Below, one piece after another: positions 9,260 through 35,994 of a stretch of 38,244 nucleotides of DNA. The notes beneath the pieces are model-generated. The model was not told the DNA's origin. It saw nothing but the letters and a program-made list of their open reading frames with translations, and searched no databases. This DNA comes from a virus (taxonomy: Duplodnaviria; Caudoviricetes): the IMG/VR virus record IMGVR_UViG_3300012943_000046, positions 1 to 38,244 of that record. One strand, 5' to 3'. The position numbers were made by a program, and so were the translations under genes. The first letter of the stretch is position 1. Each line of letters begins with the position of its first letter.

Positions 9260-9449
9260 CGAGCACCTCCCGGACGCGCTTGAGCACGCTCGCGTGCATC
9301 CCGTGGTTTACCGCGCGCGAAACGCTCTCCCGCGGACGTCCTGCTTTCTTCGCCAAGGACTTCATCGAGAGGCCGAGGGCGAGGCGTTTCTGATGTAGCA
9401 GAATCCGGTCTTGATATGCGGTGCGCATCTGTGGTTGAACTAACTTCAC
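9252..9449 (-). CDS. Ner/Cro-like HTH regulator (start 9449 GTG or 9428 ATG)
   Basis: LGLSMKSLAKKAGRPRESVSRAVN; first early gene, divergent from the repressor. Confidence 0.75.
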   Translation of the reverse strand: MKLVQPQMRTAYQDRILLHQKRLALGLSMKSLAKKAGRPRESVSRAVNHGMHASVLKRVREVLGV

Positions 9450-9491
9450 AGATGTGAACCGCAGTTCACTTCGTCAACTATCAAAGTGAAC
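9445..9491. promoter_or_regulatory. lysis/lysogeny switch region with TTCAC/GTGAA operator half-sites
   Basis: TTCACA-GA-TGTGAA (9445-9458), GTGAAC-N4-GTTCAC (9454-9469), GTTCACTT...AAGTGAAC (9464-9491); TTGACG on - strand at 9472-9477. Confidence 0.7.
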
Positions 9492-9505: not shown

Positions 9506-9970
9506 GTGACCACGACTCCGACCTGGGCGGAACGCCTCCGCACGCTGCGCTTCCGTCTGAAGCTCGATCAGGAGGAGATGGGCAAGGAGCTGGGCCTAAG
9601 CCGCGAATGGGTGTCCAAGCTCGAAACGGGCAAAGAGGAGCCGAGCGAGCGCGTGCAGTTGAAGATGGAGAAAATCGCCAACGCTCGCGGGATTCACATA
9701 GGCGAACCTACATTCACATCCCGCCTAAAATCAGGTGATAAACCGGATCCAACGATCCAAGAGGCTCCGGCTAGGTTCGGGGGAGTGGTGGCCTCCAGAA
9801 TCCCTGCGGAGCACCGCCGTCCTTCTACGCGCGCAGAGTGTGAGGCCTACTTTGCTGAGCTGTTGGATCGCGCGGCTGCAAGTAACAACCCCAACGCCTT
9901 CCCATCCATTCATCATCGGCTCCTGCAAGAGTTCGATTTGGACGAGTGGGATCAGAAAAAACCAAAATGA
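9506..9970 (+). CDS. prophage repressor, XRE-type HTH
   Basis: RLRTLRFRLKLDQEEMGKELGLSREWVSKLETG; divergent from the Ner-like gene; no S24 peptidase domain seen. Confidence 0.85.
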   Translation: MTTTPTWAERLRTLRFRLKLDQEEMGKELGLSREWVSKLETGKEEPSERVQLKMEKIANARGIHIGEPTFTSRLKSGDKPDPTIQEAPARFGGVVASRIPAEHRRPSTRAECEAYFAELLDRAAASNNPNAFPSIHHRLLQEFDLDEWDQKKPK

Positions 9971-22315: not shown

Positions 22316-23170
22316 ATGTCCTGGTACGCACTCCAACTCGGCTACCCTCACAAGGCTCGCATGAAAGCGATGGCCGAAGGCGTCGCGGCGCTCGGCGGCC
22401 GTGTCGAGGTCGTGTCGGAAACGGCATCGGCGGATGACCTCATGCGGCTCCTGTCGTCGGCCCGCCCGCGCTTCGCCTTCACCTGCGGCATGCATCGCGA
22501 GGCAGCGCGGCCGCGTGGGATCCTCGCGGGTTTCGATGTTCCTCTCCTGGTGCTCGACTGTGGGTGGTTCAACCGCGCCGAGGGCGGCGACGATGAAGAG
22601 GGCTACAACCAACTCGGCCTCGGGCAGCTCAACTGGCTTCCGCCGCGGTGCCATCGCTCGCCGCGCCGCTGGCTCGCCCATGGGCTGACGATTGCCCCGC
22701 GGCAGGCCCGCCCCGGCAACAAACGTCTCCTGGTTCTCGGCCAGGTCCCCAACGACTCCCAGCACCACCTGAGCGTCAACGGGCTCGCCTCCTGGCTGAC
22801 CGAACGCGCTGCGGAATGTTACGCGCAAGGTTGGACGATCCTCTACCGGCCGCATCCTCGGCATGTCCTGACCACGCTGCGGATTCCGCACACGGTGATG
22901 GATCCGGCAGAGCCACTGGCCAACCAGCTCGCCGGTGTCGCGGCCGCGCTGACTTTCAACTCGACCGCCGGGCTCGAGGCGCTGCGCGCGGGCGTGCCCG
23001 TGGGTTGCGATTCCTCCGCACACTATCACCGGGTCGCGGGGATCACCGATCCGGACGAGCTGCTCGCGCACTGCGAACTCCTGGCCGCCGCCCAGTGGAC
23101 CTGCGCCGAACTCCGCACGGGCGCGCCGCTGCGCTTCATGGCGCAGTTCTCCAAGAGGATCCTGCCATGA
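22316..23170 (+). CDS. KpsC/KpsS-like (Capsule_synth) GT-B glycosyltransferase
   Basis: Start at ATG 22316; LLVLGQVPNDSQ, ILYRPHP, TFNSTAGLEALRAGVPV, QWTCAELRTG. Confidence 0.82.
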   Translation: MSWYALQLGYPHKARMKAMAEGVAALGGRVEVVSETASADDLMRLLSSARPRFAFTCGMHREAARPRGILAGFDVPLLVLDCGWFNRAEGGDDEEGYNQLGLGQLNWLPPRCHRSPRRWLAHGLTIAPRQARPGNKRLLVLGQVPNDSQHHLSVNGLASWLTERAAECYAQGWTILYRPHPRHVLTTLRIPHTVMDPAEPLANQLAGVAAALTFNSTAGLEALRAGVPVGCDSSAHYHRVAGITDPDELLAHCELLAAAQWTCAELRTGAPLRFMAQFSKRILP

Positions 23171-23934
23171 ACGGTCCGGCACAGATCCAAATCCTGGTCC
23201 CGTTTTGGGGCAACCATCCGGACTATCGACGCTGGCTCGATGAGTGGCTGGAACACTACCGGCAGAGCGGTTGCAACGCGCCTGTAACGATCATTTCCGA
23301 CGACGTTCTGCCGGTCGAAATTCCCGCGGTGAAATGCCAGCTCGACTGCCGCGCCTATCAGGACTTGGTCGATCCCCGCTATCCATACGACCGGAAGGCG
23401 GCGATCGTGTGCGCTGCGCTGCTGCATTTCGAGGGTCCGCTTCTGGTGCTCGATGCCGACGCCTGGCTGGTGGGCGATCCGATACCGCTGGTCGAGTCGT
23501 TCATCAATGAGCCGATTGCCATGCCCGCTGACGAGGGCGCTTTCGGCAAGCGGTATCCTGGTCCGCATGACATGATCGTGCGCCGTTGCGCGGGAGTCAT
23601 CTTCTTTGGTGCTCCGCGTCGCAATGTTCGCATTCGGCTGATCGAGCGGTACCGCGAGCGCTTCCTGGCGCTGCGCGAGTTGATCGCCACCGGAGCCATG
23701 CCCGAAGAGCGCCGGCTCCTCGAGCAGCACGCGTGGACGTTTGTTGCCGACCTGTTCGGCACGCCTGTGCTGCCGCGCGAACTCAACTGGCCCGCTTGTT
23801 TTGTGCATGCTGGGGAGAACCCCGCGGCCGTCATCCATCATCATATCGGCAAGCGTAAGTGGATCAATGCCGAGGCCGCGCCCACGCCGGGCCTGCTCAA
23901 TGACGGGCAACTCAAGTCTCTCGCTCGCGTATGA
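23167..23934 (+). CDS. GT-A fold nucleotide-diphospho-sugar glycosyltransferase
   Basis: Start at ATG 23167; LLVLDADA (DxD), CAGVIFF, LLEQHAW, LPRELNW, VIHHHIG. Confidence 0.8.
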   Translation: MNGPAQIQILVPFWGNHPDYRRWLDEWLEHYRQSGCNAPVTIISDDVLPVEIPAVKCQLDCRAYQDLVDPRYPYDRKAAIVCAALLHFEGPLLVLDADAWLVGDPIPLVESFINEPIAMPADEGAFGKRYPGPHDMIVRRCAGVIFFGAPRRNVRIRLIERYRERFLALRELIATGAMPEERRLLEQHAWTFVADLFGTPVLPRELNWPACFVHAGENPAAVIHHHIGKRKWINAEAAPTPGLLNDGQLKSLARV

Positions 23935-28344: not shown

Positions 28345-29838
28345 ATGAAAAAACTCCTTACTGTCCTCTGTCTTCTGTCCCCTGTCCTCTGCCAAGCCGA
28401 CATCATCGGCGACCTCAACGTGCAGAAGACCCTGCGCGTCGGCACCGCCACCGCCGGCACGATCGCGCCGGCGCAGATCACGTCTGACCAGGACGACTAT
28501 GCGCCGACCGGCTACGCGGCCGCGTTCGAACTCCTCTTGAGCACCGACGCAGCGCGCACGCTCACCGGCCTGGCCGCCGGGGCCGACAAGGAGATCAAGT
28601 TGGTCACCAACACCGGCAGCTTCGACCTCGTGCTCGCCGATGAGTCCGGCTCGAGCACGGAGGAGAATCGCTTTGACCTGGCTGACGATGTCACGGTCGG
28701 GCCGCATTCCTCCGTTCTCCTGCGTTACTACGCCGGTGCGGTTGATCGGTGGCGTGTCATCGGCGGCGCCGGCGGCGGTGGCGGTGGCAGCGTCACCGAT
28801 GCGGCCGCCGTCCACGTCGACGTGGCGGCCGAGATCTCCGGCGTCGCGAACAAGGCCACGCCCGTCGTCGGTGACTATCTGCTGATTGAAGACTCCGCCG
28901 ATTCCGACGCGAAGAAGTCGATCACGATCGGCAGCCTGGAGACCGCGCTCGAAGGGATCCTCGATCTGCCCGACCTACAGGGCGTGCTCACCGGTGCAAA
29001 GGGTGGCACCAACGCCGCCAACACCGGCCGCACGATCACGGTCGCCGGCGACTTCACGCTGAGCGGCGCGAACTCGCTGACGCTGACCACGACCGGCACG
29101 ACGAGCCTGACGCTTCCGACTAGCGGCACGCTGCTTTCGGACGCTGCGGCCGTTACTGTTCCCCAGGGTGGGACGGGCCGGGTGACCGGGACCACGGCTT
29201 ACGGCCTGATTGCTGCGGGTACAACGGCCACTGGCGCCCAGCAGACGCTCGCCGCCGGTACCACCGGCCAGATTCTCGTTGGTGGCGGCGCGAGTGCTTT
29301 GCCGGTTTGGACGACCGCAACCGGCACGGGCGCGCCTGTTCGCGCGGATAGCCCAACCTTCACGACGGCGGTGACGGTTAGCGGCAACCTGGATGCAGGC
29401 ACGATCCGCGCCGCGACGGCGACCGGCGTTAAGTTGATCTCGTCGGATGCGAACGGCGTCGGCTTTGCGCTGATCACCCCTAGCGGTACAGCCACTCAAT
29501 CGAACTTCATCCTCTACGCTGGCGCGGATACAGCCAACACCAATTTCCTCAACATAAAGGCAAACACAGGCGAGACGCATATCGATTCGGGCAAAGCAGG
29601 CACCGGGACTGCTCAAGCGCTCAATCTGAAAGTCTCTGGATTCACGATAGCATCGCTCACATCTAGTGGCTTGGCTGTGACCGGTGTGATTTCCACTTCC
29701 GCCCCGAGCGGAGGCACGTCCGCTAACTGGAAGCTCGGCACCGTCGACTCCGTTACTCTCACCAGCCCCAATCGCAGCGTCGAAGTGGAGGTCGGCGGGA
29801 CCACCCTCTACATCCCCGCGAAAACCACGAAGGACTGA
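28345..29838 (+). CDS. tail fibre-like protein with N-terminal signal peptide
   Basis: Gly/Thr/Ala-rich, GGT repeats (GAKGGTN, VPQGGTG), poly-Gly linker; MKKLLTVLCLLSPVLCQA-D. Confidence 0.75.
   Translation: MKKLLTVLCLLSPVLCQADIIGDLNVQKTLRVGTATAGTIAPAQITSDQDDYAPTGYAAAFELLLSTDAARTLTGLAAGADKEIKLVTNTGSFDLVLADESGSSTEENRFDLADDVTVGPHSSVLLRYYAGAVDRWRVIGGAGGGGGGSVTDAAAVHVDVAAEISGVANKATPVVGDYLLIEDSADSDAKKSITIGSLETALEGILDLPDLQGVLTGAKGGTNAANTGRTITVAGDFTLSGANSLTLTTTGTTSLTLPTSGTLLSDAAAVTVPQGGTGRVTGTTAYGLIAAGTTATGAQQTLAAGTTGQILVGGGASALPVWTTATGTGAPVRADSPTFTTAVTVSGNLDAGTIRAATATGVKLISSDANGVGFALITPSGTATQSNFILYAGADTANTNFLNIKANTGETHIDSGKAGTGTAQALNLKVSGFTIASLTSSGLAVTGVISTSAPSGGTSANWKLGTVDSVTLTSPNRSVEVEVGGTTLYIPAKTTKD
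28361..28391 (+). repeat. heptamer tandem repeat CTGTC(C/T)(T/C) x4 in the signal-peptide coding region
   Basis: CTGTCCT CTGTCTT CTGTCCC CTGTCCT CTG. Confidence 0.8.
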
Positions 29839-29841
29839 CCC

Positions 29842-30273
29842 GTGAATCTCCGCCTCTCGTTTCTCATCCTGCTCCTCGCTCCCTGCTCCTTGCTCCACGC
29901 TGACAAGGTCGCCCTCACCCGCGCGCAAGCCTCGGAACTCTACGTCGCCCTCGCCACCACCGAGGCCGGTCTCTCGCCGGCGAACACCGTCGCCGCGGCC
30001 GACAACCTCAACGCGCTGCGCCCGCACGTCGAATCCCTGGACAAGGGCAAGGTCGCCTACCAGCGCGCGCTGCGCGCCCTGGCAAAGTCCCAGCCGGCCG
30101 ACGCCGAACTGCAGGTCCAAAAGCTCACCGCTGAACTCGAAGGCACGGCCGAAGCCCAGATCAAGGTCGACCTCGCCGCGCTCAACCTGAGCGACGAGGA
30201 AATCGCGAACGCGAAGGTGAAGCCCGCCGGGCTCGCCGTGATCCGTCGCTGGCTCCTGCCGCAGAAGAAATAG
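29842..30273 (+). CDS. putative fibre/tail chaperone with signal peptide
   Basis: MNLRLSFLILLLAPCSLLHA-D; helical body; lies between fibre and tape measure. Confidence 0.6.
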   Translation: MNLRLSFLILLLAPCSLLHADKVALTRAQASELYVALATTEAGLSPANTVAAADNLNALRPHVESLDKGKVAYQRALRALAKSQPADAELQVQKLTAELEGTAEAQIKVDLAALNLSDEEIANAKVKPAGLAVIRRWLLPQKK

Positions 30274-30303: not shown

Positions 30304-31914
30304 ATGGCCGACCAGCTCTCCCTCGAGATCCTGATCAAGACGATCGCGGACACGCGCGGCATCGTCACGACGAAGGATCAGGTCGCGGCCCTGGCCAAGG
30401 AAATGGATGCGGCGGCCGCCGCTACCGGCCGGCTCGACACCTCCGCAGACAAGATTGCAGCGTCCCTGCAGGGCGCCGGCAAGGCGGCTGAAACCAGCAC
30501 GCAGGCGACGGACACCTTTGGGCGCGCGTTGGAGCGGATCGAGAAGCAAGGCAGCGGAGTGACGGACCAGATGAAGGAGCAGGCGAAAGAGACCCTGCGG
30601 AACATCGACGCCACGGATCGGAACGCCAAGTCGGCCGAGTCCCTCGCCAAGAGCCTCAACGGCGCCAAGCTGGGCTTTTCCGGCGTGCGCGACGTGGTCA
30701 GCGGCGGGCTCAATGGCAATCTCCTGCAGGTCGGCGAGGGATTTCTAAAGATCAGCAAGGCATCGGCGGAGGCCACGCCGAGACTCGCATCGCTTTTTGC
30801 CCAGCTCGCTCGTGGCGCCGGCGCCGGTGCGGCCGTCGCGGCTCCGCTCGCGATCGCAACCGCCGCAGTGAACCAATATGCGGACGACGTTATCGCCGCC
30901 AATCAGCGCATCCTCGACAACGCGGCATCCTCGGCCGCCCAGCGCAAGAAGCTCCTCGAGGAAGAGACCGCGGCCGTCGTCGCCGAATACGCCAAGCAGA
31001 TCAAAGCGGCGAACGACGCCGCGACTGCCGCCGAGGAGGCGCAGAAGCGGATCGATGCGTCCTACTCCCGCGCGGACAAGAAGCGCGACCCCGAGCGCAG
31101 CCTGCGCGACACCACGCTCGACATCGAGGAGAAGCGCGCCCTGGAGAAGGCCGCGACTCCCGAACAGCGCGAAAAGATCAGCCGCGACTTTGCCCGTCGG
31201 CGCGACGCCAACAAGGCGAGCGACCAGTTCGCCGATCTCAACACCTCCGACTTCGAAGGAGCGACCAAAACCCGCGCGGCCGAGGAAGCGATCCGTGCCG
31301 CCCAGCAGCGCAATGATGAGCTCCGCGCCGGCGTCTCCAGCGCCGAGATCGATTACGAAAACAAACGCTCCGCGGCCGCGAGCTTCGGCGCATCCGACAC
31401 CGGCGTCGCTGCCGAGCGCGCCCGCAAGGAGGCCTTCGACGCGAAAGCCAAGCTCGAGACCGCGCGCGGCAAAGCTGACGAGGGCTACGAGGCGAACTCC
31501 AACGTCATCCAGACGCAGCAGGCTATTATCGACCAGGCCAAGGACACCAAGGAGATCGTCGCCATCCAGCGCGAGATCCTGAAGGCGACCCTCGCCCAGA
31601 AATCGCACGAGTCCAGCGGCAAGGGCGCCACGTCCGAAGACAAGAAGGATGCCGCTGCGATCGACGCGGTCATCGCGCAAGACGTGGCCGCGCCCGCAAC
31701 CAAATCAAAGGGCTCCGGCGGCACGATCACGCGCGGCGGACAGACCTACGCGGTCAGCGATTCTGCATCCGTGGAGCGCGCGGTGAACGCGGCCGGTTCA
31801 GCGATCGCCACGACGTTGGACTCGGTCGGCAAGTTCGCGAAGACCGTCAGCGACAAGAGCGCCAAGCTCGATGAGCGCCTCGCGATCGAGCGCGAGCGCG
31901 CCGCCGGCGGCTGA
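30304..31914 (+). CDS. tape measure protein
   Basis: LEILIKTIAD N-terminus, Ala/Lys-rich helical 536 aa, central hydrophobic patch. Confidence 0.8.
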   Translation: MADQLSLEILIKTIADTRGIVTTKDQVAALAKEMDAAAAATGRLDTSADKIAASLQGAGKAAETSTQATDTFGRALERIEKQGSGVTDQMKEQAKETLRNIDATDRNAKSAESLAKSLNGAKLGFSGVRDVVSGGLNGNLLQVGEGFLKISKASAEATPRLASLFAQLARGAGAGAAVAAPLAIATAAVNQYADDVIAANQRILDNAASSAAQRKKLLEEETAAVVAEYAKQIKAANDAATAAEEAQKRIDASYSRADKKRDPERSLRDTTLDIEEKRALEKAATPEQREKISRDFARRRDANKASDQFADLNTSDFEGATKTRAAEEAIRAAQQRNDELRAGVSSAEIDYENKRSAAASFGASDTGVAAERARKEAFDAKAKLETARGKADEGYEANSNVIQTQQAIIDQAKDTKEIVAIQREILKATLAQKSHESSGKGATSEDKKDAAAIDAVIAQDVAAPATKSKGSGGTITRGGQTYAVSDSASVERAVNAAGSAIATTLDSVGKFAKTVSDKSAKLDERLAIERERAAGG

Positions 31915-31922
31915 TCCCGACC

Positions 31923-33308
31923 ATGGCCTCATCCCTCTGGAAAATCCGTTACGGTGGCGTCACGAAGACAGCCGAAGCGTGGGGCGCAGTCGGCCTGGAG
32001 CTCAGCCGCCGCAACATGGCGGCCGACCAGCTCGTCTTCCGGTGCCCGCGCCAGAATATTTTCGATGCTTGTCCCTTCGCCTACGATCAGCCGCTGGTGT
32101 TGCTCCGGGGCAGCACGACGTATTTTTCCGGGCGGGTGCAGCCTCCCACGGCGTCGGTGGATGGCGAGAGCGGCCGCGAGTCCTGGACCATCACGGTAGC
32201 CGGTCCCTGGGCAATGCTGGAGCGCATCGTCTATCAGCAGCGGCGCACGCTGAAGACCGAAGACTTCTCCGGGCTCCTCATGCGCTACACGCCGCAGGTC
32301 GTGCTCGGACAGGACGCATGGGGAAGGAAGAGCACGACCGACGCGACGATCGCCGACATCGCGGCCTATGCCCTGACCCAGATGAGCGGGATCTTCATCG
32401 TCAGCGCGCTCGCCGACGGCATCACCCCGCCGCTCACCGAAGCCGCCAACCTTACGTGCGCGGCCGCCATTCGCAGGCAGCTCGAATGGACACCGGACGC
32501 GGCCACGTGGTTCAACTACGCGACGACGCCGGCGCCAACCCTTGTCATCCAACGGCGCGCGGCGATGTCCGCGCTCGCGATCGATCTCGATGACAAGCGC
32601 CTCACGGGGCTTAGCTCACTGCGCCGGCGTGATGACCTGGTGCCGGCAGGCGTCGTCTTCACCTTCAACGGACTGGAACTCAATGCGCTCGACTCGACCT
32701 GGTACCCGCGCGCGTTCGACGACACCGCCGGCGCCGTCGCCGGCGTCGACGTGATCTTCGCCGCCTTCACCCTGGCCAACCAGGGCACCGATCAGGCCGA
32801 GGCCGTGCCTTACGGTCTCGCGGCCGCCTACTATGCGTCGCTCGCGACTGCCTTCTGGGAAGGCCAGCTGGCGCACGTCGATGAGAGCGGCGAATGCACC
32901 GGGTTCGCGCGTCCTGGCCAGCTGCTCAACCTGCTCAACGGAAACCCCGATTGGAGCGCGATGGCGGCGCAGATCAATTCGGTCACCGAGGACATCGATC
33001 GCGGCATTACCACGATCACCCTCGGCCTGCCGCCGATCCTCAGCGCATACGATTTCCGGGACCTCATGAGCAAGGCCCAGAACTCGAAGGCGGCGAGCGA
33101 CGACACGGCGAAGCGGCACAACGGCACGGAAGGCGTGCCCGCGGAGAATGGCGGGCCCGGCGGCGCGCCCGACGTTTCGCCAGGAGATCGCACGGGCAAC
33201 GGCGGCGCCGGGAGTTCGAGTCAGATCACCGGCGCGGGCAACTCTACCTTCACGGCGGAGTTCTGCGTCGATGGTCAACCCGTGAAGAAAACCGTGATCG
33301 GAGCCTAG
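31923..33308 (+). CDS. tail tip/hub-like protein
   Basis: Follows tape measure; YFSGRV, ITVAGPW, WEGQL...PGQLLNL...INSVTEDI...TTITLG. Confidence 0.65.
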   Translation: MASSLWKIRYGGVTKTAEAWGAVGLELSRRNMAADQLVFRCPRQNIFDACPFAYDQPLVLLRGSTTYFSGRVQPPTASVDGESGRESWTITVAGPWAMLERIVYQQRRTLKTEDFSGLLMRYTPQVVLGQDAWGRKSTTDATIADIAAYALTQMSGIFIVSALADGITPPLTEAANLTCAAAIRRQLEWTPDAATWFNYATTPAPTLVIQRRAAMSALAIDLDDKRLTGLSSLRRRDDLVPAGVVFTFNGLELNALDSTWYPRAFDDTAGAVAGVDVIFAAFTLANQGTDQAEAVPYGLAAAYYASLATAFWEGQLAHVDESGECTGFARPGQLLNLLNGNPDWSAMAAQINSVTEDIDRGITTITLGLPPILSAYDFRDLMSKAQNSKAASDDTAKRHNGTEGVPAENGGPGGAPDVSPGDRTGNGGAGSSSQITGAGNSTFTAEFCVDGQPVKKTVIGA

Positions 33309-33310
33309 CC

Positions 33311-35125
33311 GTGGCGATCGTGAACAAAACCGGATGCTGCGATTGCGGCCAGTTGGTCGACGCCTGCAGCTGCGGCGCGGCGAAAGGTACGACGGAATGC
33401 CGCTTCAAAAGTGGCGCGGCCGAGATCTGCGGAATCCCGGAATTCGCGGATCCGCCCGAACACTGGTTCCGCCGCCGCCAGACGACGGGGACCATGACGC
33501 TCTCTCGCTACCTCGACAGCGTATGCTCCGGGGAAATTTCGGTGAGCGCCGGACTGGAGTGCCGCAGCAAGGAGAGCACCGGCACGCTCATCGGATTTAG
33601 CGAGTTTGGCTTCGATGGGCTCGCGCCCTCTGATCCTCCGAGGAAGTACCGGCGGAAGGTGGTCGCCGGCCGGATCTATTCGTGCCAGTATGGCGGCAGC
33701 CTGTTTAGCTGCCACGGCAACAATGTGCTTTCGCAGCGCGCCGAGTATGAACTCAGCGGCGCGGCCGAATACGACAAAGATACCGCAGCCTTCAGCAACG
33801 CGATGGTCTCAAAGCTATATCGCGTAGATTCCCCAGGGGTGGATTGCGGTGCCGCCGCGGGCTTGGTCACACTGAATTCCACCGAGGGGGTTTCATCGGA
33901 CTTCCCAACGAACTCCTCGAATTGGCCCAGCAATTTCCCCGGTGGCACCGTGGCATGCACGAGCACCCAGCTCTCCGCTCCGCTCGTATGGTCGGCGGGT
34001 CTTACTGAGGCGGTGTTTGGTAATGCTGGCGATTGCGTCTCGTGTGGAGGGACCACGGCTGGCCCGACCCGCGGGATCGTCTCGACTCCGATCACCACGA
34101 CGCTGGATGAGGAGGACACCGAGCAAGATGCGATCGACCGTGCAGGCGGCGAGATGGACTGGGGCGGCGCCGGAGACTGCAGCTCGCAGTACACCTATAA
34201 GGACACGCGGGGATCCGGGGATTTTTCCTTCGGCTTCCGCCAAGTCCAATCCCGCATAGTCGTGAGCAGTGGCTTGACCAGCGGCGCCAACTACGAGGGC
34301 CGGATCATCGTCGGCAAACGCACGGCCGGATCGATGGGGTCCTTCGTCGACACCGGGACGCCAATCATGGTTTTTTTCACGGCTTCCGGCTCGGGCCACA
34401 CCTCCGACTGGCAGGATCTGCCGCAGGAAGACGGCTTCGAATATCAGGCCATCGGCGTCGAGGTGTATGGAGAGATCGCGACCCTCACGGTCGACGCCTG
34501 GGACATCGAAGAGGTGTACAATTCGGGGACGTGCGTTCAGGCGTTGGATAATAACTCAACCCGCACGGTCGACGGCGATCCTGGCGACGATTCCGTCTTT
34601 GATGATATTCCGCCCGACGTTTATGGGGGCCTCGCCGGCGTGAGCACCTCGCCGACCATCCGCACCACCACCGGGAACGATACCTGCCTCAGCGATGGCT
34701 TGGGTAGCTACGTGCAAGCGAACGGCACCGTGCAGGAACAGCTCAGCGACGAGGACACCGACCAGGACGCGGCCACGCGGGCGATGAATGGGATCACCGA
34801 CTGGATCGGCGGCGGGTGTGACCTGCCGGCCTTCATCACGGGCCGCACGCCGGGCAACAAAGTCTTTGGCTTTCGATGGCTCAATGTGCGCGGCCAGCTG
34901 CAGAATGCCCACCCTGGCGGAGGCGCCCCATCGAAGACATATCACCTCACCTGGAAGATCTATCGGCGGCAAAACGGCTCCAGCCTGGCCTATCAATATT
35001 ACGGCGACCTCGTCCAGGAGGTCACGGTCACCACCCCTGTCCATACAACGGACTGGATCGACGTGCCGAACGAAGCCGGCTGGGACACCAAGGTCGGAGC
35101 GCTCACGGTCACCCTGGTCGCATGA
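33311..35125 (+). CDS. cysteine-rich tail tip/receptor-binding protein with nested internal duplication
   Basis: GTG 33311; 604 aa, 19 Cys by hand count, N-terminal GCCDC...CSC; no signal peptide. Confidence 0.7.
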   Translation: MAIVNKTGCCDCGQLVDACSCGAAKGTTECRFKSGAAEICGIPEFADPPEHWFRRRQTTGTMTLSRYLDSVCSGEISVSAGLECRSKESTGTLIGFSEFGFDGLAPSDPPRKYRRKVVAGRIYSCQYGGSLFSCHGNNVLSQRAEYELSGAAEYDKDTAAFSNAMVSKLYRVDSPGVDCGAAAGLVTLNSTEGVSSDFPTNSSNWPSNFPGGTVACTSTQLSAPLVWSAGLTEAVFGNAGDCVSCGGTTAGPTRGIVSTPITTTLDEEDTEQDAIDRAGGEMDWGGAGDCSSQYTYKDTRGSGDFSFGFRQVQSRIVVSSGLTSGANYEGRIIVGKRTAGSMGSFVDTGTPIMVFFTASGSGHTSDWQDLPQEDGFEYQAIGVEVYGEIATLTVDAWDIEEVYNSGTCVQALDNNSTRTVDGDPGDDSVFDDIPPDVYGGLAGVSTSPTIRTTTGNDTCLSDGLGSYVQANGTVQEQLSDEDTDQDAATRAMNGITDWIGGGCDLPAFITGRTPGNKVFGFRWLNVRGQLQNAHPGGGAPSKTYHLTWKIYRRQNGSSLAYQYYGDLVQEVTVTTPVHTTDWIDVPNEAGWDTKVGALTVTLVA

Positions 35126-35544
35126 GCACAGTCTGGTTCAACGTCCGCAACCCCGCCCTGCAAAAGCAGGCGCCCGCCGCCCGCCCGACCGTGGCCCAGA
35201 TGATGAGGCAAGCCATCGCGGAAGGCATGCGGCCGGCTTTCGGCGGCGCAGAAATCTGGGCTGCCTGGCACCGCCGAGCCCTGGCATGGGAAGGCGGTGA
35301 TGACACCCCCTGGATCGCAGCCAACGTCCTCAGCCGACTCCCGTGCGGCGAATGCAGCAAGCACGCCAAGGCCTGGCTGCAAACGAACCCCCCTCAGTTC
35401 GAGGCCTACGCCTACTTCGCCTGGACCGTCCGGTTTCACAACGCCGTCAACGAGCGCCTGGGGAGGCCAGTCTGGACCCCGATCGAGGCCCGCGACCACT
35501 GGTCCTGCAAGGCCGGTTCCTTGACATTGCAGGGGCCGGTTTAG
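35122..35544 (+). CDS. Erv1/ALR-family FAD-dependent sulfhydryl oxidase
   Basis: ATG 35122 overlaps the upstream TGA; GAEIWAAWH, LPCGECSKH (CxxC), WTVRFHNAVNERLGRP. Confidence 0.88.
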   Translation: MSTVWFNVRNPALQKQAPAARPTVAQMMRQAIAEGMRPAFGGAEIWAAWHRRALAWEGGDDTPWIAANVLSRLPCGECSKHAKAWLQTNPPQFEAYAYFAWTVRFHNAVNERLGRPVWTPIEARDHWSCKAGSLTLQGPV

Positions 35545-35596: not shown

Positions 35597-35645
35597 CTAT
35601 TATCAAACGTACTGGAATTATAACTAAACCCCGCCGGAAGTTACA
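35597..35645. mobile_element. putative right end (attR-like) of the prophage
   Basis: AT-rich; CTATTATCAAAC and TTATAACTAAAC 21 bp apart; terminal TTACA (5'-TGTAA on - strand). Confidence 0.6.
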
Positions 35646-35662: not shown

Positions 35663-35692
35663 ATCCGTGGCAATCCGTGAAATCCGTGGTTA
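35663..35692 (+). repeat. host short tandem repeat ATCCGTG x3
   Basis: ATCCGTGGCA ATCCGTGAA ATCCGTGGTT. Confidence 0.7.
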
Positions 35693-35994
35693 AAAAGCGA
35701 CCCAGCCGGAGTCGCGCCTACGTCTATATCCTCCGCTGCGGGGATGATTCGCTCTACACCGGCACGGCGCGCGATATCGCCGCGCGGCTCGCGTTGCACG
35801 CCGCGGGGAAGGGCGCCAAGTACACCCGCTCCCGCGGCCCGCTCACTCTGGTGTGTCAGGAAGGGCCGATGACCGTCGGCCGCGCGCTCCGGCGCGAGCA
35901 CCAGTTGAAGCAACTCACGCGGCCACAGAAAGAGGCGTTCGTGGCCGGTAAGCTGATCGTAGTTTTGCCGCGACGGCGGAAGCAGAGGAAGTAG
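35677..35994 (+). CDS. GIY-YIG nuclease family protein (YhbQ/UPF0213-like), host gene
   Basis: YVYILRCGDDSLYTG...RLALH...GKGAKYTRSRGP...ALRREHQLK. Confidence 0.92.
   Translation: MKSVVKKRPSRSRAYVYILRCGDDSLYTGTARDIAARLALHAAGKGAKYTRSRGPLTLVCQEGPMTVGRALRREHQLKQLTRPQKEAFVAGKLIVVLPRRRKQRK

Follow-up and report, generated by a model that had tools for sequence, protein, structure and literature searches.

Why does a tailed bacteriophage carry a sulfhydryl oxidase of the Erv/ALR family as its last gene, and on which protein would such an enzyme act? This question is raised by a virus record of 38,244 nt (IMG/VR record IMGVR_UViG_3300012943_000046; Caudoviricetes), which in its full length is called the window here and which contains the greater part of a Mu-like transposable prophage from soil. 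At the right end of this prophage the oxidase gene (35122..35544) follows a tail-end gene (33311..35125), whose Cys-rich product is referred to as the partner. A sequence-only reading of this DNA had proposed that the phage brings its own oxidase to fold a disulfide-stabilised tip protein in the cytoplasm. The analysis presented here favors, with moderate confidence, an oxidase that is tethered to a host-attachment protein and likely forms its disulfides; binding of flavin adenine dinucleotide (FAD), catalysis and the disulfides of the partner are what we infer for it.

Judged from its sequence and predicted fold, the gene at 35122..35544 (plus strand) is a genuine member of the Erv family. 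The 140-aa product contains the complete Erv/ALR pattern exactly as described before, namely G42-x3-W46-x3-H50, P74-C75-G-E-C78-x2-H81 and W101-x4-H106-N107-x-V109-N110-x-R112-L-G-x-P116, and it matches Pfam PF04777 (Evr1_Alr) with 40.3 bits at a cut-off of 27.6 (E 4.2e-10). The best PDB sequence match is 3gwl, pB119L of African swine fever virus (ASFV), at E 1.5e-7, followed by plant, human and yeast Erv proteins. An AlphaFold2 (AF2) model based on 68 sequences displays the Erv helical-bundle fold with a predicted local distance difference test value (pLDDT) of 87. The top Foldseek rows for this model, in the PDB and viral libraries, are all Erv/ALR proteins with probability 1.00; it resembles ALR, Erv1, Erv2 and ASFV pB119L, and the root-mean-square deviation to 3gwl is 1.9 Å over 95 columns. 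Both the Pfam search and the structure prediction therefore bear out the earlier assignment.

The active site, C75-G-E-C78 (35344..35355, plus strand; from the sequence and the homologue alignment), starts helix 76-88 and is aligned with the CxxC of 3gwl and 2hj3. In Erv/ALR proteins the W, H and H-N-x-V-N residues belong to the flavin site. Here, W46, H50, C78, W101, H106, N107, V109 and N110 are invariant across all 68 homologues, C75 is kept in 51/68, and 41/68 have only two Cys. The gene thus represents the compact viral type without a conserved shuttle Cys pair, and its product would be expected to bind FAD and to oxidize thiols with oxygen. A longer open reading frame (ORF), 34876-35544, was rejected as the true start, since the homologues begin at 35122. 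The ATG of the oxidase overlaps the TGA of the partner gene (ATGA), and neither protein appears to carry a signal peptide by a hydropathy heuristic (best 10-residue means of 0.64 and 1.37 for the two proteins, compared with 2.6–2.75 for proteins with apparent signals), both as noted in the sequence-only reading.

The oxidase gene lies within the prophage. The right end is a TG..CA terminus at 35645 (...GTTACA; feature 35601..35645, minus strand), placed by the sequence and by a contig of 734 nt from an independent study (run X2). The first 557 bases of this contig match 35089-35645 with zero mismatches, and the remaining 177 bases are absent from the window, with the divergence exactly at 35645. 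Since the contig departs from the window at this position, the gene is inside the phage, and a prophage boundary upstream of 35122, which had been named as an outcome that would speak against the proposal, is excluded. The Mu-like type is seen in the DDE transposase, a MuB-like ATPase, Gam (PHROGs) and the TG..CA end; the left end lies beyond the window, and the record is 22% complete by CheckV.

The partner gene (33311..35125, plus strand) starts with GTG and encodes 604 aa with 19 Cys (3.1%), among them the N-terminal clusters C9-C10-x-C12 and C19-x-C21, in agreement with the initial description. This Cys number is the highest in the window, and the percentage ranks second among the 29 genes of at least 150 aa. 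Homologues share 37–54% identity and begin at 33311, so the longer ORF 32894-35125 was discarded as the true start. What is new here, as deduced from homologues, is that the partner is a nested duplication of a unit of ~290 aa. An inner copy, residues ~72-388 (33524..34474, plus strand; from the unit hidden Markov model (HMM) and Cys columns), with the conserved C72, C84, C134, C179, C242 and C290, is inserted into an outer copy. The unit HMM covers residues 72-384 end to end and additionally 27-74 and 445-595, the halves of the outer copy, and single-copy forms are found in L009 (a 274-aa gene) and L113. Across 16 units, C242 is kept in all, C72 and C134 in 15/16, and C179 and C290 in 12/16; most of the conserved Cys are single and dispersed and do not form CxxC pairs.

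The same unit also stands at the start of RHS-repeat proteins of Verrucomicrobiota. When 401 genomes belonging to the phylum of G007 were searched, it was matched in three, namely one prophage and two RHS-repeat proteins (L213 3411-9914 in G347 and L214 1-5267 in G323). The latter have apparent signal peptides, begin with an undescribed domain of ~300 aa homologous to the unit and both contain a Cys at the C242 position. This exported host version would favor disulfides over metal in the unit and suggests a surface or attachment role. The 604-aa protein is likely a virion-exposed host-attachment protein and likely the substrate of the oxidase. For the label tail-tip, the position after tape-measure-like and hub-like genes speaks in favor, and PHROG tape-measure or major-tail matches lie upstream in L007, L012, L015, L024, L081, L085, L109 and L121; no Pfam or PHROG match was found, and the tail-tip identity is one of position. 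The partner also gave no PDB match, and the unit gave none in cultured phages or in a PDB profile search. The Foldseek rows for the partner model all had E > 0.001 and were disregarded, and in the ESM Atlas residues 460-604 gave only hypothetical viral clusters below 0.9 with a template modeling (TM) value of ~0.5 or lower.

Linkage between Erv and Cys-rich tail-end genes is seen repeatedly, in phages that are unrelated to one another. The survey comprised 80 loci kept of 276, 87 further stretches and 7 genome loci, with genes called by a custom script and loci grouped by a quick tree and context. One near-duplicate was dropped, L006 and L010 were moved to the giant-virus side, and a podovirus-like clade was counted separately; the tail-linked group consists of 23 hand-picked loci, 22 of them with an upstream gene. 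Within this group the gene upstream of Erv has at least 3% Cys in 18/22 loci, compared with 9/198 in the background, and it is the most Cys-rich gene of the locus in 16/22, where 2.55 would be expected. In two of the four exceptions the Cys-rich part is fused to Erv (L024) or lies downstream (L012). Such fusions were found in L024 (17 Cys), P0179 (37) and P0235 (21), and PHROGs searches with 136 selected proteins placed head, connector or tape-measure genes in many tail-linked loci. The order hub, partner and Erv with the ATGA overlap is repeated in L001, where the partner is 34% identical and the downstream genes are unlike those of Mu. On the giant-virus side there is no enrichment (8/37 vs. 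35/200).

A second new point is that the unit is not tied to Erv, as gene order in related phages suggests an exchange with another small protein behind the same partner. A search with the partner alone revealed five loci, and the two outside the query, L180 and L181, are without Erv. Their slot protein has 144–149 aa, ends with CxxC-x13-C-x4-CGC-x11-C and shows a similar stop-start overlap. A scan with this six-Cys motif gave 26 stretches with 16 such genes, 14 of them distinct and most behind a partner homologue. The protein can be called DUF6171-like only: in the ESM Atlas it matches, at 0.89, a cluster in which DUF6171 proteins make up 14%, and of 13 members one matches DUF6171 (PF19668; E 4e-4) and 12 do not. 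A PDB profile search with the DUF-like alignment gave no match. In L215 the slot contains a 71-aa protein with a leader-like start and neither the Erv nor the DUF domain. From sequence comparison, the slot thus apparently takes at least two interchangeable helpers, of which the oxidase is one. The sequence-only reading had equated the terminal slot with that of Mu gin/mom; no such homology was found in Pfam or PHROGs, the analogy was dropped, and the slot is better likened to the position of a fiber or tip assembly helper. Separately, in L191, L192 and L201 the gene before the six-Cys helper encodes an unrelated repeat protein (WFWG repeats, RCC1-like by eye), which still starts with P-C-x-C-C; an N-terminal Cys cluster may be the common anchor of different tip proteins.

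Third, members of both slot families can share an N-terminal leader. In the window oxidase this comprises residues 3-13 (35128..35160, plus strand), a β-strand followed by NPAL, a variant of HAPHL, recognized by motif counts and a cross-trained HMM. HAPHL within the first 45 residues is present in 9/234 Erv homologues, in 3/13 six-Cys proteins and in 0/1,010 other ORFs, and with a profile built from five six-Cys leaders, 15 Erv N-termini outrank every other ORF. The strict leader motif is found in 20/234 Erv and 4/13 DUF-like proteins. After the leader had been singled out, the single-unit pair of L113 was chosen for a complex model with FAD and custom alignments, in which ligands were not scored. 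The pair scored 0.61, compared with 0.14 for the best of three controls; the score mark was reached by 116/157 solved complexes and by 2/215 mismatched pairs. Here, the partner has a pLDDT of at least 59, and the confident interface is formed by Erv residues 1-19 on partner strand 254-262. The leader is therefore predicted to dock on the β-sheet of the partner, and the model would support binding in a homologous pair while saying nothing on catalysis.

Taken as a working mechanism, the oxidase would be made beside its substrate by translational coupling and would tether itself via the leader strand to the β-sheet of the upstream partner. Electrons would then pass from the partner thiols to C75/C78, to FAD and to oxygen, and a domain normally oxidized in the periplasm would fold in the host cytoplasm. 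The RHS homologues carry apparent signal peptides and would thus be oxidized in the periplasm; the phage partner is without a signal peptide and would therefore need a cytoplasmic oxidant. Erv1 reportedly works in the reducing cytoplasm of E. coli. The idea that the phage supplies its own oxidase for cytoplasmic folding is supported in part, by a true Erv in the prophage, the linkage, the fusions and the modeled contact, and it is weakened by homologues that often lack an oxidase.

Several results weigh against this reading. Among 16 distinct phage loci with the unit, the next gene is Erv in five, the DUF6171-like protein in ten and neither in one, in a sample biased both ways, since both main slot groups were enriched by the manner of their discovery. 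The expectation that Cys-rich homologues would usually have an adjacent oxidase is accordingly only partly borne out, as 11/16 loci in this biased sample are without Erv. None of the three phage loci that were recovered with the partner alone and lie outside the query has Erv, no Erv was found in the 14 six-Cys-type virus records searched (controls positive; three records at least 90% complete), and the DUF-linked partners are about as Cys-rich (3–23 Cys) as the Erv-linked ones (6–28). In the podovirus-like Erv clade (14 rows) a Cys-rich neighbor is present in 0/10 counted loci, so the proposed co-occurrence of Erv with Cys-rich tail genes holds for the tail-linked loci and the fusions and fails in this clade. 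Regarding the partner, the secreted RHS homologues contain fewer Cys (1.6–1.7%), the N-terminal CCxC...CxC cluster is equally compatible with metal binding, and the AF2 model from four sequences has a pLDDT of 37 and yields no usable partner structure. Regarding the complex, the docking was modeled on the L113 homologues and not on the pair of the window, one of the three runs scored 0.03, the contacts common to the runs amount to at least 0%, and the interface residues placed with confidence do not include the active site. The displacement by the DUF6171-like protein cuts both ways: Erv is not required, yet the replacement is again a Cys protein with the same leader.

Of the other explanations, the one that survives best is that the slot gene mainly encodes an assembly helper or structural subunit. 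Here, the leader would complete the β-sheet of the tip, the attached domain (Erv, DUF6171-like or almost nothing) would be secondary, and Erv may be a passenger of the virion whose action on the partner comes late, if at all. A leader common to unrelated C-terminal domains, the modeled L113 interface formed by the leader alone and the short slot protein of L215 are what such a helper would predict. Nevertheless, the catalytic and flavin-site residues of Erv are invariant in the 68 homologues, many slot proteins have no recognizable leader by the counts given above, and both alternative domains are Cys-centered; this explanation is rated unlikely.

A further step down in probability, with a slim chance of being correct, is the view that the partner Cys bind Zn or Fe, that the DUF6171-like protein is a metal-loading helper, and that Erv oxidizes a small Cys subset or remodels a metal site. 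The CCxC and CxC clusters at the N-terminus of the partner would fit to this, as would the six invariant Cys of the DUF-like protein (CxxC..C..CxC..C, a typical pattern of metal binders) and its standing as the commoner partner neighbor in the sample. On the other side, most of the conserved partner Cys lie far apart as single residues, proteins with apparent signal peptides, in which one expects disulfides, contain the unit as well, and a thiol oxidase would compete with metal loading.

Least likely of all is an active Erv that oxidizes different proteins of the virion or the host, or that acts through a small Cys carrier in the manner of poxviruses, with the adjacency reflecting only the usual site of late accessory genes: the podovirus-like clade with Erv away from Cys-rich genes, G437 of that clade, which carries both Erv and a DUF6171-like gene, the latter behind a 13-Cys gene, and several Ervs with an extra N-terminal Cys module or glycosyltransferase domains are in line with it, but it is opposed by the strong adjacency enrichment, the fusions and the modeled contact, by the window record (22% complete), in which no DUF6171-like gene of this subfamily was found, and by the Cys counts of most other late window proteins (0–7; terminase 13). 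A six-Cys gene was seen in 1/20 Erv records, there behind a 13-Cys gene.

Going beyond the tethered oxidase itself, a more far-reaching and rather doubtful proposal is that tailed phages of PVC bacteria (Planctomycetota, Verrucomicrobiota, Chlamydiota) run a modular Cys-maturation system. In this system a leader strand would clip a helper, either Erv or the six-Cys protein, onto the tip protein, and the latter helper would be a new flavin-free disulfide-forming or Cys-loading factor, recognized by non-orthologous displacement of Erv. Phages could in this way achieve cytoplasmic folding of a domain that is normally exported on RHS proteins in their hosts.

The oxidase itself can be placed among its relatives. 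The search yielded 314 of 7,991 candidates and 1,550 representatives at E <= 0.001, giant-virus and eukaryotic proteins included. A motif scan of bacterial and archaeal genomes, with a motif that recovers 109/251 Erv homologues, gave seven stretches, all from Verrucomicrobiota or Planctomycetota, which points to a PVC bacterium as the host. In a quick tree (~143–145 rows, 104 columns) the window oxidase falls among Ervs of phages and PVC prophages and away from most giant-virus rows, at a Shimodaira–Hasegawa-like approximate likelihood ratio (SH-aLRT) of 94; the tree is poorly resolved with long branches and served for grouping loci, not for inferring a donor. Cultured phages gave no significant match (best E 0.3), and single-protein scans of viral contigs gave nothing new. 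Some Ervs differ in architecture or setting. L006 and L010 combine a giant-virus-like context with a CxC-type Erv placed among phage sequences at weak support, a possible exchange between phage and giant virus. Tandem double Erv domains occur in P0131, P0150, P0213 and P0245. In the podovirus-like clade (L022, L043, L005 and 11 related rows) Erv is longer, contains a C-P-C motif and an additional N-terminal domain, and adjoins a gene of ~430 aa or a giant gene of ~2,500 aa.

Regarding the surrounding genes, PHROGs matches in the window comprise transposase, MuB-like, Gam-like, repressor, terminase, portal, protease and head-tail adaptor. The hub-like tail gene (31923..33308, plus strand; 461 aa, role deduced from position) is 37% identical to that of L001 (E 3e-75) and 33% to that of L180 (E 6e-53), is kept upstream of Erv-type and DUF6171-type partners alike and has no Pfam or PHROG match. 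In front of it lies a tape-measure-like gene (30304..31914, plus strand; 536 aa, Cys-free and Ala-rich, assigned by composition and position) without a PHROG match, whose slot holds PHROG tape-measure matches in other Erv loci. Just before this gene, fiber-like and small tail-operon genes at 28345-29838 and 29842-30273 have apparent Sec signal peptides (hydropathy 2.6), as do those of L001 (1069-4599, 4612-5049), with similar cases in L009, L012 and L215; it is unusual for a tail operon to encode exported proteins, and their recurrence in related PVC phages was judged by eye. Between head and tail genes lie two glycosyltransferase-like genes, 22316-23170 with weak Pfam matches to Capsule_synth/DUF6716 and 23167-23934, called by eye alone. 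In other phages Erv is fused to GT8, GT9 or GT25 domains (L089, L091, L121, P0239), and virion glycosylation may accompany the oxidase. The early genes are transcribed away from the late genes, in contrast to Mu, and a 22-nt inverted repeat (9412-9468) between the divergent repressor (9506-9970) and the early genes is likely an operator. Two similar blocks of ~22 nt within the right end (35601..35645) may be transposase sites. Immediately outside the phage end, a short ATCCGTG repeat (35663-35695) with high depth and many differing flanks in several runs is likely an interspersed repeat of the host; beyond the prophage end follow a GIY-YIG gene and a rhamnosidase gene (Pfam). Among the sequencing runs compared, none of RNA was listed, which carries no information on expression, and rows with small shares were set aside.

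Among known systems, the closest are ASFV pB119L (PDB 3GWL), vaccinia E10R and the compact Ervs of nucleocytoplasmic large DNA viruses, which like the window oxidase have the Erv fold, a single CxxC and no shuttle disulfide; the pB119L type likewise comes from a virus whose assembly takes place in a reducing compartment. In contrast, the window oxidase comes from a tailed bacteriophage, groups with phage and PVC-prophage Ervs and has a predicted docking leader as well as translational coupling to its likely substrate. The poxvirus relay consists of E10R, A2.5L and G4L; in the window no thioredoxin-family match was found among the proteins scanned against Pfam, which were not all ORFs of this incomplete record. 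With the cellular Erv1, ALR and Erv2 proteins the window oxidase has the fold and the W/H/HN-x-VN residues in common, whereas it lacks the conserved shuttle Cys pair and a targeting signal and stands in a bacterial-virus context. Mu S/U and lambda stf/tfa are tail-fiber assembly helpers behind fiber genes and, like the slot gene, small, coupled behind a variable tail-end gene, exchangeable and predicted binders; no sequence similarity to them was found, and the slot helper is a redox enzyme or a six-Cys protein.

In one part of the literature the Erv family is defined by fold, cofactor binding and active-site Cys, with many viral members compact and without a shuttle disulfide (PMC3509050); the fold and the Cys of that definition are present in the window oxidase by prediction and alignment. 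The baculovirus oxidase Ac92/P33 (BSOX) introduces disulfides into proteins of the virion within a reducing compartment (PMC11654684); P33 differs by an additional pseudo-Erv domain and by clustering with QSOX, whereas the window oxidase is single-domain. According to the same paper, viral Ervs are confined to baculo-like and nucleocytoplasmic viruses (PMC11654684), and another states that bacterial homologues of Erv1/Alr are absent (PMC10598087). Two further papers are without bearing on phage Erv (PMC12750041 and PMC6842933), the second of which notes disulfides in archaeal-virus proteins. As to whether a phage Erv had been described before, the literature searched listed no paper on one, nor on DUF6171, supplements lying outside the search, so that annotation tables listing PF04777 in phages could be missed.

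A small oxidase of the bacterial cytoplasm with a transferable docking tag could aid the production of disulfide-bonded proteins in E. coli. The exchange of Erv and the DUF6171-like protein, with the same partner and leader, would give a testable function to an uncharacterized domain that is found mostly in tailed-phage clusters (ESM Atlas). Since Erv oxidases are described for eukaryotes and large DNA viruses, a family of phage and PVC-prophage members would extend viral disulfide formation to bacteriophages and would reopen the origin of the giant-virus enzyme.

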